From: a virus
Lineage: Duplodnaviria > Heunggongvirae > Uroviricota > Caudoviricetes
Length of the DNA stretch: 26,548 nucleotides
IMG/VR virus record: IMGVR_UViG_2681813161_000008
Strand: one strand, 5' to 3'
Part shown: in pieces, positions 11,001 through 17,000 of the stretch
Numbering within the stretch: the stretch's first letter is position 1
Layout: each line of letters starts with the position of its first letter
Made by a program: the position numbers

Positions 11001-14000
11001 GCGGTCGAACTCCGCCTTCGCAAAATAAGCGGAAGCCTGGCGAAGGATATCGTTACTGCGGCGCAGTTCACGATTTTCACGTTCCAGCTCTTTCAGACGC
11101 TGACGTTCAGCGGTGGTGAGCCCGCCATCACCGCCTCCGGTATCCCGCTCATGCTGGCGTACCCAGACACGCAGAGTCTCCGGTGTACAGCCAATCTTTG
11201 GGGCAATGGAACAAATTGCCGCCCACTGTGAGTCATATTCGCCCTGACTTTCCAGAACCATACGAATCGCCCTCTGACGGACTTCGGGGGAAAAACGAGT
11301 ATTTTTAGTCATCCTGTTTACCTCTTTCTCAGGGAGTTTAGTCTCCAGGATTCCCGGGGCGGTTCAATCTGCCAGTTGCGCCAAATCTGCTGAACCAGAC
11401 GTTCGCTCCTACAGCACCAAATCAGGTCTGGGTGGCGGACCTGACGTATGTTGCCACACAGGAGGGATGGTTGTACCTCGCTGGCATCAAAGATGTTTAT
11501 ACGTGCGAAATTGTCGGCTACGCCATGGGAGAGCGCATGACAAAAGAGCTGACAGGTAAAGCCCTGTTTATGGCGCTCAGGAGCCAGCGCCCACCTGCCG
11601 GGCTAATCCACCACTCTGATCGAGGTTCACAGTACTGCGCATACGATTACCGGGTCATACAGGAGCAGTCTGGTCTGAAAACATCAATGTCGCGTAAAGG
11701 TCACTGTTACGACAACGCTCCGATGGAAAGCTTCTGGGGAACGCTGAAAAATGAGAGCCTGAGCCACTATCGTTTTAATAACCGGGATGAAGCCATCTCA
11801 GTAATACGGGAATACATTGAGATTTTCTACAATCGTCAGCGTCGTCACTCTCGTCTGGGGAATATCTCCCCGGCAGCCTTCAGGGAAAAATATCATCAGA
11901 TGGCTGCTTAAAAAAAGAACAAATGGTAGTGTCCGCTATTGCCAGTACACCTCATGATGGACTGTGTGCAGTTTGTTCCCGATCCGAAAAAACGCAGCAT
12001 CCGGAGACCGCTTGTTGAAGAGGATATTGAAGAAATCATTACCCGTCTTAATCTGCGTGCGGAGGTCTTTAAGCTGCATGTGGATTTTTTCGCTACCGTC
12101 GTCAGCTAGATATCCCCCGCGTTATCTCGACCCCGACAGACCGTTCGGGGTGGTGGATTACGTTAATGTTCCCCGTACCATTGCGACCGTTATCTCCTCC
12201 GGTAAGGCTTCAAAAGCTGAACTGGATTCTGTCCTTGGTGTGCAGGACTTATGGGATCTGCTGGAAATAATTCATGTGGATGCCCATAACGAACAGGTGA
12301 TACAGGAGAACAGAAATGGCGCAGGTACTTGATGAGCTTGTTCTGTCCCTCGGGATTGATGACAGGGACTTTACTGCCGGGGAACAGGCAGTACATGCTG
12401 CCCTTAACCGGCTCACGACGGTGATGGAAGGTGTCGCTGACACATTCAGTCAGGGACAGAAGAAAACCAGTGAATCACTGGAAAAAACCGGAAAAGATGC
12501 TGATAAAACGGCCCGTCGAATGGAAGATGCCGGGAAACGGGCGTCCCGTTTTTTTTCAGGGATCCGTAGCGAGATTCTGGCTCTTGCGGGTGTCAGTCTG
12601 ACGCTGGGGGGGCTGAAGAACCTGGTAACAGGTTTTGCCCGTGATCTGAACCGTCTGTCCGTGGAATCCGATGCTTTTGGCATGAAGGCCAGAAATCTGG
12701 ACGGATGGTTACGGGCTGCGCGGGCAAATAATGTTGATGAAGGGGAAATGTCTGGGGCATTTTCCCGGCTTGCAAATGCAAAAGCGGCCTTCAGAGCCGG
12801 AAGGTCCTTTGATCCTGTGTTACAGGATTTGTTTCAGGTTGCAGCCAGGGCGGGCATTAGTGTTGATTTAAATACTGACAGCACTGAAGCCATCATGCGC
12901 AAGCTGGCGGTTATTTTTCCGCGACTGACAAAGTCCGAACAAACTGCCTACGGCAACGCGCTGGGCTTCAGTTATGCCGGACAGCAGTTTCTTGGCTCCG
13001 GTCATGCGCTGAAAGATGTGGACGAATTTACTTCCCGTTCGCAGGTTACGCCGGGGCGTACAGCGCTGGCCCGTAAGCTACGAAAAGAGCTTGTTGAGCT
13101 CGATCAGACCTGGTCCGGCATCGGGATGACGATTAGCACCGCGTTGATGCCGTACGCGCTGAAGCTCAGCCACTGGCTGGAGACACTCGGTGACTGGATG
13201 CAGCAACATCCGGAGGAAGTGAACAGGTTTATCACCACATTTCTGAATGACGTTGAGTCAGTGGCCTCCCTGGCGAATAAGGCTGCCGGAGAACTGGGGG
13301 GCTGGCAGAATGTCATTATTACGCTGATCGGGCTGAAAGTGGCGTCATGGGTGCGGGGCTGACAAAAGCCCTCAGTGGCCCCGGAGGCCTTCTTTTTGCG
13401 ATAACGGCGCTTTACCCGGTTGTTGACGGATTACTGACATCCATTGTTGGCAGGGAAAATAAGGACTGGCTGGATTCACATGGTTTTTTCTGGGCTTCAG
13501 ACGGGACTTTCTTTTTCAATAAGAAAGAGATGGAGACGTATCAGACAAAACTGGATGCCGGAGAAAAGCCTGGCAACATCACCCGGGCACAATCACCCAC
13601 AGTATGGCAGCAGGGCATGCTGGATACTCAGGCTTCTCAGGCAACCGGGAGGGAAGCAGCCTTCGGTGAATCCTGGCTACAGGGTATGCGTGCGACGCAG
13701 GAAAAACTCGGTAATGCCATGCAAAACCGCCAGCGACCGACGAAGACCGGGGAAGCCCTGTTAGGCTGGCTGCAACCGAAACTGTCTCAACTGGAGGAAA
13801 AATATAACCTGCCGCCCGGACTGCTGCGCAGCGTTGCGATCACCGAATCCCGTGGTAATCAGTTTGCCGTCTCACCTGCTGGTGCGATGGGACTGTTTCA
13901 GTTCATGCCGAAGACGGCCAGTGAATTTGGTCTGAGGGGGAACGATGCCTTTGATCCCGAAAAAGCCGCTGATGCCGCCGCGAGAAAACTTGGTGGCCTG

Positions 14001-17000
14001 ATACGTTTTTTTCATGGCGATCTGGCTAAGGCTCTGGCGGCATATAACTGGGGAGAGGGAAATGTTCAGCGTAAGGGACTGGCTGCTGCTCCGGAGGAGA
14101 CCCGCAACTATATTCCGCGGGTGCTGGCGAACCTGCCTTATCCGGGTGCGGCAATGGCCATACGGTCGCTCCATCCTGCGCCTGTATCGCAGTCCACCGT
14201 AACGGAAACCACGCATATCGGGACACTGAATGTCACCACAACGTCGGACAATGTGAAGGGTATTACCGATGACGCACGTCGGCGTATCACGAATTCGGCG
14301 CTTGTGTCGGTTTATTCCAGCGGGGTAACAGGATGAGTTTTTCTTTCGATAATATTTCCCTGAATAACTTTTCGCTCAGTGAAAGTAACGTACTGAGTGC
14401 AGTTCGTGGCGGCGGTGTCCTGGGACTCATTAATAGTGTACTGGCACCGTCATTCGGTATTTATTACGCACGGAATGATCCGGCAGGTGCCCATCAGAAG
14501 GGTGGCAAACCTTTCTCCCCGGATTCTTTTGTTGTCGTTGAGGTGGGCGCGGAGGCTTCTGTTTCCACCGTCCCCGTGGAGCAGGGGGCTTATACCACCT
14601 TTAATAAAATCCAGAGATCGCCGGAACTGCATGTGACTTTCATTGTAGAGGGGTGGACGGCCTTTTCCGGATCCGTCCCGAACCTGACAAATTTTTCCAC
14701 CACCTCGCGGACGAATGTGCTGGAAACGCTTGAAAGGATGCGTACCACGGCAGGACTCTACGATATTGAGACGCCGGACAAGACATGGACATCCTGCGAC
14801 CTTGTGAAATATGACTACCGAATGCGAAGTAATAATGGTCCGACCTTACTGACGGTTACTGCGGTATTTCAGACCGTAATGAATACAGGAGAGGTGTCAG
14901 TGGGAAGTACGGATAAGTCGTCTCCCACGGACAACGATAAAGCAAAAGGGGCCGCATCGGTTAAAACGCAGCCAGTTACGGCGTCGGTGACACAACCGTC
15001 AGACGCTGACAGACGAAGTGCCACGAACAGGGGGATCACCTGATGCTGGAAATTGTTTTATCTCCCGTTAAAGCCCAGCAGTTTACGGTGACACTGGGCG
15101 CTCAGGTCTGCACCATTCGCCTGAATCAGCGTACTACGGGGATGTATATCGATATCATTGTTAATGGTGAACCGTGCCTGTATGGCGTGCTGTGTCTGAA
15201 TAATAACCGGATTGTCCGGTACGGATACCTGCCGTTTCAGGGGGACCTGTTTTTTACCGACACGGAGGGGAATAGTGACCCTGACTGGCGGGGGCTCGGA
15301 TCCCGGTACCGGCTCTACTGGCTGTTACCTGAGGAACTGATATGAGCTACAGACAACGTAAAATAAGTAAGCGTAAACTGACCGCCGTATGTAGCCATTA
15401 AGCCTGTATTGGTAACGTAGGTGCCCACCTTTTCAACTAGTGGACACCTGTTATGGAACAGAAAGCATTATCTGCAGAACCCCGCAGATCATTTTCAAAT
15501 GAGTTTAAACTTCAAATGGTTAAACTGGCTTCACAACCAGGAGCCTCTGTTGCCCGTATTGCCCGGGAACACGATATCAATGATAACCTGCTGTTCAAAT
15601 GGCTCAGGCTCTGGCAGAACGAAGGGCGCATATCGCGGCGTCTTCCGGTAACAACCTCTTCTGACACTGGCGTTGAATTATTACCTGTGGAGATAACGCC
15701 GGATGAGCCGAAAGAACCTGTGGCTGCTCTTACTTCGTCTTTATCTACTCAGACTACAGTTAGTGCCAGCTCCTGCAAGGTGGAGTTCCGTCACGGTAAC
15801 ATGACGCTGGAAAATCCTTCACCAGAGCTGCTCACAGTGTTGATCCGTGAACTGACCGGGAGGGGACGATGATCTCACTCCCGTCAGGCACCCGCATCTG
15901 GCTCGTTGCTGGGATAACCGATATGCGTAAGTCTTTCAACGGGCTGGGTGAACAGGTACAGCATGTGCTGAATGATAATCCCTTCTCCGGTCACCTGTTC
16001 ATCTTCCGTGGCCGACGGGGTGACATGATTAAAATCCTGTGGGCTGATGCTGATGGTCTGTGCCTGTTCACCAGACGCCTGGAGGAAGGCCAGTTTATCT
16101 GGCCTGCTGTGCGTGACGGCAAGGTATCCATTACCCGCTCGCAACTGGCAATGCTCCTCGATAAGCTGGACTGGCGTCAGCCAAAAACATCCCGCCTTAA
16201 TGCACTGACAATGTTGTAAAAATGTCATGGCCGGATTATAAAAACGGCCATGAATCAAAAATACCTCATTCGCATTGCAGAACTGGAATGCCAGCTCCGT
16301 CAGAAAGACCAGCAACTGAGTCTGGTTGAAGAGACGGAGGCCTTCCTGCGCTCTGCACTGGCCCGCGCCGAAGAAAAGATCGAAGAAGATGAACGGGAAA
16401 TAGAACATCTGCGGGCTCAGATAGAAAAACTGCGCCGGATGCTGTTCGGTACCCGTTCTGAAAAACTGCGTCGTGAAGTTGAACAGGCTGAGGCCCTGCT
16501 GAAACAACGCGAACAGGACAGTGATCGTTACAGTGGGCGGGAAGACGATCCGCAGGTTCCCCGCCAGTTGCGACAGTCTCGTCATCGTCGCCCGTTACCG
16601 GAGCATCTGCCCCGCGAAATAAATCGCCTGGAGCCAGAAGAAAGCTGTTGCCCGGAGTGTGGCGGTGAGCTGGATTATCTGGGGGAAGTCAGCGCAGAAC
16701 AACTGGAACTGGTGAGCAGCGCTCTGAAAGTGATCCGCACAGAACGGGTAAAAAAAGCCTGTACAAAATGTGACTGCATCGTTGAAGCACCGGCACCATC
16801 CCGTCCGATAGAGCGTGGTATCGCGGGCCCGGGGTTACTTGCCCGCGTGTTAACGGGAAAATACTGCGAACACCTGCCACTGTATCGTCAGAGTGAAATT
16901 TTTGCCCGTCAGGGTGTCGAACTGAGCCGTGCATTACTCTCCAACTGGGTTGACGCGTGCTGCCAGTTAATGACGCCGCTGAATGATGCTCTGTACCGTT

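Follow-up and report, generated by a model that had tools for sequence, protein, structure and literature searches.

A tape-measure gene apparently split by a single missing base in a Shigella-type prophage remnant

RESULTS

One G separates two overlapping reading frames

Two open reading frames (ORF1 and ORF2) in the window, by which we mean the whole 26,548-nt stretch of IMG/VR record IMGVR_UViG_2681813161_000008, are almost certainly the two parts of one 673-codon gene with a 1-nt deletion, as judged from alignment with intact relatives. Our preferred reading, to which we assign a probability of roughly 0.6, is that this is a single tape-measure gene, probably split by a homopolymer error of sequencing or assembly, in a non-functional remnant. 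The host DNA is that of a Shigella boydii-like lineage. The features of the gene are as follows.

12316..13362, + strand: ORF1, codons 1–348 of the tape-measure / lytic tail protein gene (ORF, phrog_2013, identity to the L022 protein)
13309..13353, + strand: hydrophobic segment 1, residues 332–346, NVIITLIGLKVASWV, just 5′ of the break (Kyte-Doolittle mean 1.69, 15 residues)
13347..14336, + strand: ORF2, MGAG plus codons 349–673 of the same tape-measure gene (ORF, phrog_2013, identity to the L022 protein)
13355..13358, + strand: G4 run, site of the 1-nt deletion (alignments to relatives)
13392..13448, + strand: hydrophobic segment 2, residues 360–378 of the repaired protein, LFAITALYPVVDGLLTSIV, just 3′ of the break (Kyte-Doolittle mean 1.8, 19 residues)
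13791..14108, + strand: SLT lytic transglycosylase domain, ORF2 residues 149–254 (PF01464, E=4.8e-26)

ORF calling on the window gives a 348-aa ORF1 that ends in ...VASWVRG* and a 329-aa ORF2 that begins with MGAGLTKALSGPGGLLFAITALYPVVDGLL...; the two lie in different frames and share 16 nt (13347–13362), the overlap that the preliminary description had reported. ORF1 corresponds exactly to residues 1–348, and ORF2 residues 5–329 exactly to residues 349–673, of the intact 673-aa protein of JWSL02000004.1 (L022), and since both ORFs match parts of an intact homologue exactly, the split is not a chance pattern. At the junction, the relatives read GTG CGG GGG CTG ACA (V R G L T), while the window reads GTG CGG GGC TGA. 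The sole frame-changing difference from the intact relatives is one G lost from a G5 run at 13355–13358, and adding one G back to this run yields the exact 673-aa protein. Loss of this G brings a TGA into frame two codons on, and a chance ATG in the new frame provides the apparent start of ORF2. The premature TGA that closes ORF1 (13360–13362) is produced by the frameshift, and ORF2 opens at a chance ATG at 13347 with four out-of-frame codons (MGAG).

The hydrophobic stretch that had been described as continuous over the junction is not so in the hydropathy profile, which resolves two moderately hydrophobic segments with a polar linker, RGLTKALSGPGG, between them; the frame breaks at codon 348, inside this linker. 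The mean of segment 2 is the maximum of the protein.

Homologues pass the site in one frame

A PHROG profile search assigns both ORFs to adjoining parts of one family: along the 657 positions of phrog_2013, ORF1 covers positions 1–320 (E=1.3e-118) and ORF2 covers positions 320–656 (E=4.4e-120). The intact relatives have a single 2022-nt CDS of 673 codons, which in nine E. coli chromosomes is 99.7–99.9% identical in DNA to the 2021-nt query. Using the adjacent 236-aa Dit-like gene as a handle, we found the same remnant in 13 Shigella-type records, in 11 of which the 673-codon ORF is open; 20 of 22 near-identical records carry the whole gene in an open frame. In E. coli, Shigella, Salmonella and Serratia, about 120 listed homologues are each encoded as one protein, almost all of 630–740 aa, and aligned to them one protein covers both ORFs with 100% query coverage. 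The expectation of one tape-measure-like gene, about 675 codons long and carrying an indel, is thereby borne out, with 673 codons and one missing G.

The intact orthologue is a 673-aa protein annotated as 'lytic transglycosylase domain-containing protein' (e.g. WP_046880349.1 and WP_197939917.1; UniRef I6DVU0_SHIBO cluster), and is found in ipaH-carrying myovirus-type prophages of enteroinvasive-type E. coli and Shigella. Once repaired, the window protein matches the JWSL02000004.1 protein at every residue and differs at 1 of 673 residues from a Shigella 'MULTISPECIES' protein (P0122). The window and the orthologue loci have downstream neighbours in common, and in Shigella records the IS boundaries as well; they differ in that the orthologue has G5 where the window has G4, which breaks the window frame at codon 348.

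The preliminary description had also allowed for a natural two-gene arrangement, in which an N-terminal tape part and a C-terminal SLT enzyme are made separately from overlapping genes. Although ORF2 has its own ATG at 13347, its first four codons correspond to the intact gene read out of frame, and direct reading of the sequence 5′ of 13347 finds no convincing Shine-Dalgarno sequence. Near-identical relatives that contain the site all pass it in one open frame, and homologues are not consistently encoded as two overlapping genes. A few phage records do annotate two CDSs for the homologue, but the rare split homologues are each broken elsewhere, by another lesion: in Klebsiella phage ST15-VIM1phi2.1, codon 300 is an in-frame TAA that is TCA in a sister phage, and Klebsiella phage KP12 has a frameshift near codon 361–376. 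Among the phage records, RCIP0114, PDP110P1 and Edno5 have one open frame on inspection, despite two BLAST pieces or CDSs. With phage records either in one open frame or lesioned elsewhere, the two-gene arrangement was rejected, and we regard its probability as negligible.

The product resembles tape-measure proteins with a muralytic domain

The best family of ORF1, phrog_2013, is labelled only 'lytic tail protein'. Weaker than this match, ORF1 also matches the tail length tape measure PHROGs 9570 (E=2e-20), 2276 (3e-15) and 8125 (4e-9), while the Pfam search at E≤0.01 gave no tape-measure family for ORF1. A truncated copy (P0040) carries the source name 'putative phage tail tape measure protein'. 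The gene sits directly after the tail assembly chaperone pair and before the baseplate and distal-tail genes; in two intact prophages (L001 and L002) the order is sheath (DUF3383), tube, a 134-aa ORF, a 60-aa ORF in the −1 frame and this gene, with baseplate (Dit-like), plug, hub and spike genes 3′ of it. We interpret the product as the putative tail tape-measure protein of a contractile-tailed (myovirus-type) prophage, with a predicted plan of a helical, 'tape'-like N-terminal half, paired hydrophobic segments in the middle and an SLT lytic transglycosylase domain at the C terminus.

The SLT domain that had been noticed in the downstream ORF is confirmed by the PF01464 match, which scores 91.1 bits against a cut-off of 21.3 and covers profile positions 6–115 of 117. 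Its motifs are intact: ITESRGN, with the E at residue 511 of the repaired protein (13845–13847), GLFQFM at 526 and AYNWG at 576. A catalytic Glu in an E-S motif, a GLMQ-like motif and AYNxG are the motifs that define PF01464 SLT family 1 lytic transglycosylases. Judging from these families, in a working phage the SLT domain would cut peptidoglycan locally during tail penetration.

A close phage family is that of phrog_2013, whose 'lytic tail proteins' are the tape-measure proteins of GF-2-like myoviruses (Edwardsiella phages Edno5 and GF-2, Gofduovirus) and of related temperate phages of Klebsiella. The GF-2-like phages share the end-to-end phrog_2013 profile match, a tblastn identity of 24–36% over most of the length, and the gene position after sheath, tube, tail assembly chaperone and a small ORF. 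They differ in that their sequence is distant, their gene is single and the phages are described as complete, whereas the gene in the window is broken in two and left behind in a prophage fragment. At the DNA level, a megablast search of the phage collection with the gene gave no match, and the relatives in that collection are at the protein level only, at ≤36% identity over most of the length.

Tape-measure proteins with a peptidoglycan-hydrolase domain are known from the Tmp of mycobacteriophage TM4 (PMC1796659), lytic transglycosylase domains occur inside tape-measure proteins of enterococcal phages (PMC10194240), and such proteins have been reviewed (PMC6116005). These examples have the same architecture: a muralytic domain, presumed to aid the tail in crossing the cell wall, is embedded in a long protein that acts as the ruler of tail length. 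Most of them belong to siphoviruses that infect Gram-positive or mycobacterial hosts, and apart from the SLT fold their domains and sequences are unrelated; the activity of the window domain is a prediction.

The gene lies in a tail-module fragment between IS elements

Around the gene, the window retains the following features.

11954..12106, + strand: tail assembly chaperone remnant, last 51 codons (homology to intact prophages starts at 11954)
12114..12118, + strand: C5 run with an apparently private 1-nt deletion (alignments; frame analysis)
12150..12332, + strand: 60-codon ORF, phrog_3976, E=1.6e-31 (profile; L001/L002 annotation 11835..12017)
14333..15043, + strand: Dit-like baseplate protein gene, 236 aa, intact (PF21821, phrog_1830)
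15043..15345, + strand: baseplate plug gene, Pam3 gp18-like, 100 aa (PF22479, E=1.7e-22)

The chaperone remnant is cut off on its 5′ side by an IS3-family (IS600-like) element and contains the slippery heptamer T_TTT_TTC at 12085–12091, a −1 site in frame at the end of the 134-aa chaperone ORF. The 60-codon ORF is the −1-frame part of the chaperone, annotated as 'hypothetical protein' just 5′ of the tape-measure gene in intact prophages, and the C5 run lies inside the −1 frameshift extension, which it breaks. The plug gene is the last surviving gene of the fragment. Homology to intact prophages covers only 11954–15366, stopping where an IS66-family element begins (TnpA and transposase at 15453–17842) and resuming in pieces after the IS elements. 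The surviving piece of the tail module is 3.4 kb long, between IS elements, without the sheath, tube, hub and spike genes. Stranded in this IS-bounded orphan fragment, the tape-measure gene is, on the evidence of its sequence context, without function here, whatever the cause of the deletion.

The break inside a homopolymer, in a tail gene cluster of a kind that uses programmed frameshifting and next to a chaperone with a T_TTT_TTC site of its own, raises the question of recoding or phase variation, in which the making of full-length protein would depend on ribosomal −1 frameshifting, on slippage in transcription or on a reversible switch in the length of the G run. In the relatives, recoding is unneeded, as the G5 frame is already open, and GTG CGG GGC TGA contains no in-frame X_XXY_YYZ heptamer. 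The G4 allele occurs in 0 of 22 related records, giving no sign of switching, and in an incomplete tail module there is nothing to regulate. Known slippage and contingency tracts are far longer than G4 or G5. The open frame in relatives, the lack of a slippery heptamer and the short tract led us to reject this explanation, which we consider very improbable.

The deletion appears private to this record

Every compared record that contains the site (20–22 distinct records, L001–L022; 20 with the frame open through the site) has G5, and only the window has G4. A second 1-nt contraction, also private to the window, lies 1.2 kb upstream, where a C6 run in all relatives with the site is C5 at 12114–12118. 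The alignment of window positions 4335–25043 to JWSL02000004.1 (GCA_001188055) spans 20,711 columns without a mismatch; its only 2 gaps are the G run at 13355–13358 and the C run at 12114–12118. Only about 21 of the 117 runs of at least 5 bases in that stretch are G/C, yet the two gaps both fall in such runs.

Neither the exact ORF1 product nor the exact ORF2 product occurs in an index of 153 billion gene positions or in a 15-billion-protein collection, while the same index lists the adjacent 236-aa protein in 673 blocks. NCBI gene calls seem to follow the deposited annotation, and pseudogenes would thus leave no protein on record; the absence is therefore weakened for NCBI genomes and holds for independently called read-archive assemblies. 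A 39–40-nt pattern that takes either G4 or G5 had no match for either allele in genome_contigs or metagenome_contigs, and is uninformative. Taken from these comparisons, the deletion appears to be private to this record.

Because the deletion is private and the twin assembly differs only by two homopolymer gaps, an artefact is favoured over a real mutation, and the missing G would most likely reflect a homopolymer miscall in sequencing or assembly. The same single gene with a real deletion is the less probable but still substantial alternative: a very recent, strain-specific slippage in G5 would have turned a relic into a formal pseudogene, with the C6-to-C5 change as a second event. The surrounding prophage, a 3.4-kb orphan fragment between IS elements, is under no selection, and independent, real-looking lesions of the same gene occur elsewhere (a 561-codon truncation in CP026811 and an IS insertion in CP000036). 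A real indel in non-functional DNA would meet no selection, and G/C runs are naturally indel-prone. In normal bacterial divergence, however, substitutions outnumber short-homopolymer indels, while over 20.7 kb the window differs from JWSL02000004.1 by two homopolymer indels and not a single substitution; moreover, the G4 allele was found in no other assembly or protein record.

Two further observations count against an artefact. Two errors per 20.7 kb would imply a rather poor assembly. The longer A/T runs of 7–8 nt in the same stretch agree perfectly with JWSL02000004.1, including run-length differences between IS copies, which is unexpected for a generally error-prone assembly; many long-read error profiles would hit longer A/T runs first.

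DISCUSSION

The biological weight of the split is small: the combination of a tape measure with an SLT domain is already known, and Shigella genomes, like imperfect assemblies, routinely show decayed prophages with a homopolymer frameshift of one base. For annotation, both ORFs should become one frameshifted gene or pseudogene, not two proteins. Since both differences from the twin assembly are of the homopolymer type, the source record is suspect for such errors and warrants a check for them.

As it stands in the window, the 329-aa C-terminal piece combines a hydrophobic segment, an intact SLT domain and its own ATG at 13347. A real G4 allele could free this piece as a membrane-anchored lytic transglycosylase used by the host, a prospect that we consider highly unlikely; if true, Shigella would here be at an early stage of domesticating a muralytic module of phage origin.

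One gene encoded by two overlapping ORFs

ORF1 and ORF2 overlap by 16 nt in separate frames of the + strand, with coordinates in the ORF list exactly as given in the preliminary description:

12316..13362, + strand, ORF1, 348 aa
13347..14336, + strand, ORF2, 329 aa

The junction reads ...GTG GCG TCA TGG GTG CGG GGC TGA in the ORF1 frame, while ORF2 opens with ATG GGT GCG GGG CTG ACA.... Near the break lie two hydrophobic segments, 332-346 and 360-378 in the numbering of the repaired protein (one G restored), and the frame breaks inside the polar linker RGLTKALSGPGG between them. 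The initial observation is thus confirmed, except that the hydrophobic stretch proposed to run across the junction is not continuous.

A single PHROG profile of 657 positions, phrog_2013 ('lytic tail protein'), matches ORF1 over positions 1-320 (E=1.3e-118) and ORF2 over positions 320-656 (E=4.4e-120). A megablast search of complete E. coli genomes matched nine chromosomes at 99.7-99.9% identity, all of which carry the gene at 2022 nt (2021 nt in the query), and their annotation gives one 673-aa product, 'lytic transglycosylase domain-containing protein'. In pairwise alignment, the sole indel within the gene is a G run, GGGG in the window (13355-13358) and GGGGG in the relatives. Insertion of one G yields a 673-aa protein whose residues 1-348 are identical to ORF1 and whose residues 349-673 are identical to ORF2 residues 5-329; MGAG, the first four residues of ORF2, is out-of-frame sequence. 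Furthermore, a search of 5.8 billion protein clusters yielded about 120 homologues (E. coli, Shigella, Salmonella, Serratia), nearly all of them 630-740 aa long and aligned to the repaired query over its full length (100% coverage). These four lines of evidence agree in indicating that ORF1 and ORF2 are parts of one gene, as the preliminary description suggested in proposing a single tape-measure-like gene with an indel, and one full-length 673-aa homologue covers both. A single frameshifted gene is the appropriate annotation for the pair.

Some phage records at first sight contain two CDSs for the homologue. Such a form was ruled out in RCIP0114, PDP110P1 and Edno5, each with one open frame, and a natural split was rejected in ST15-VIM1phi2.1 (in-frame TAA at codon 300, TCA in PDP110P1) and KP12 (frameshift near codons 361-376). 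The breaks in these phage records are sporadic lesions at various positions with no conserved split; therefore, homologues are not consistently encoded as two overlapping genes. Independent lesions of homologous tape-measure genes occur at other positions, partly in records deposited as phage genomes:

L010 (CP026811), 1984-3669, 561-codon truncation
L006/L017 (CP000036, which we take to be S. boydii Sb227), IS insertion leaving a 332-aa C-terminal ORF
L023 (MK448228.1), 3392-3394, in-frame TAA at codon 300
L026 (OM835954.1), about 3580-3870, frameshift near codons 361-376

Identity of the gene

In two E. coli chromosome loci with an intact prophage (L001 and L002), the gene is preceded by a DUF3383 sheath gene, a tube gene, a 134-aa ORF and a 60-aa ORF, and is followed by genes for a Dit-like baseplate protein, a plug (Pam3 gp18-like), hub, spike, baseplate J and tail fibres, and then by an ipaH effector gene. 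A T_TTT_TTC heptamer lies in frame just before the end of the 134-aa ORF, and the -1 frame continues into the 60-aa ORF; the two small ORFs constitute a classical tail assembly chaperone frameshift pair, as precedes tape-measure genes. RefSeq lists the pair as two separate hypothetical proteins, not as one programmed frameshift product.

Window 12085-12091, T_TTT_TTC -1 slippery heptamer
Window 11954-12106 and 12150-12332, chaperone pair
L001/L002 11389-11793 and 11835-12017, chaperone pair, intact form

ORF1 also matches PHROGs annotated as tape-measure, and P0040, a truncated copy in the database, bears the name 'putative phage tail tape measure protein'. Gene order, chaperone frameshift, PHROG matches and this name therefore point to a tape-measure gene from a myovirus-type prophage, whose product carries a muralytic domain at its C-terminal end. 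The SLT lytic transglycosylase domain reported in the downstream ORF is present: PF01464 matches ORF2 residues 149-254 (Pfam, E=4.8e-26), and all three motifs (ES, GLFQF and AYNWG) are found. Judging from these families, the protein would presumably determine how long the tail is and later, during infection, cleave peptidoglycan locally. This architecture has been described in other phages (PMC1796659, PMC10194240, PMC6116005); the gene is of a known type and the feature is not novel.

Origin of the missing base

Every related record containing the site has G5. Alignment of window 4335-25043 with JWSL02000004.1 (GCA_001188055.2, L022) gave 20,711 columns with 0 mismatches and two gaps, namely the G run (13355-13358) and a C6-to-C5 contraction at 12114-12118. 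The latter is likewise private to the window, with C6 in every relative, and destroys the chaperone -1 extension in which it falls. It also joins another frame to the 60-aa ORF, creating a spurious 122-aa ORF (11964..12332).

The window and L022 share copy-specific A6/A7 states of IS600-like elements, and therefore represent the same strain or clone. Two G/C homopolymer contractions with 0 substitutions are what leftover errors in sequencing or assembly would be expected to produce, unlike ordinary divergence, and G/C runs make up only about 21 of the 117 runs of at least 5 bases in the aligned stretch. Neither the ORF1 nor the ORF2 product has an exact match in a 15-billion-protein collection or in an index of 153 billion gene positions, 673 blocks of which contain the adjoining protein. 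We consider the frameshift a sequencing or assembly artefact, with a probability of roughly 60%. That all longer A/T runs are concordant with L022 speaks against an artefact and leaves a real, very recent private mutation as a credible but less probable reading, one against which the absence of substitutions beside two G/C contractions weighs. Natural split genes and recoding or phase variation are, even jointly, highly improbable.

A decayed prophage among insertion sequences

Around the tape-measure gene, homology to intact prophages is limited to 11954-15366, and it recurs piecewise at 19027-19881, about 20146-21341 and from about 22901. The upstream neighbour is an IS3-family (IS600-like) element interrupted by a second IS3-family element; an IS66-family element and an IS2-like transposase lie downstream. 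The window contains no sheath, tube, hub, spike or baseplate J genes.

15453-17842, IS66-family element, downstream of the fragment
24737-26548, - strand, IpaH-family type III effector E3 ubiquitin ligase gene, running past the window end (NF046045, E=8e-170)

A look-up by the adjoining 236-aa baseplate protein revealed the remnant in another 13 chromosome records, where the downstream IS66 junction is identical, and the protein family is labelled Shigella boydii, flexneri or dysenteriae in the 15-billion-protein collection. The 673-codon ORF is open in 11 of the 13, truncated at 561 codons in one and IS-inserted in one; none of them can have a working tail module. The frameshifted gene sits in a dead prophage fragment, and the frameshift has no functional consequence.

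Nested insertions, together with IS1, IS2-like and IS66-family elements, occupy a large share of the 26.5-kb window. The element at 10057-11366 (108-aa and 296-aa ORFs; presumably IS629-like) is nested in the third of four IS600-like copies (1035-2298, 6836-8098, 9378-10058 plus 11365-11955, and 21545-22808). The A/T run at their orfA/orfB frameshift site varies in length: T7 in copy 1035-2298, A7 in the interrupted copy, and six bases in the other two, giving an orfA of 95 aa, not 100. These differences look like real copy-to-copy variation, because L022 has identical states in the three copies within the aligned stretch (1035-2298 lies outside it).

The IpaH gene lies at the distal prophage end, the position it also has in intact E. 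coli prophages. The remnant is thus an ipaH carrier whose cargo gene appears to be still open and whose structural genes are lost.
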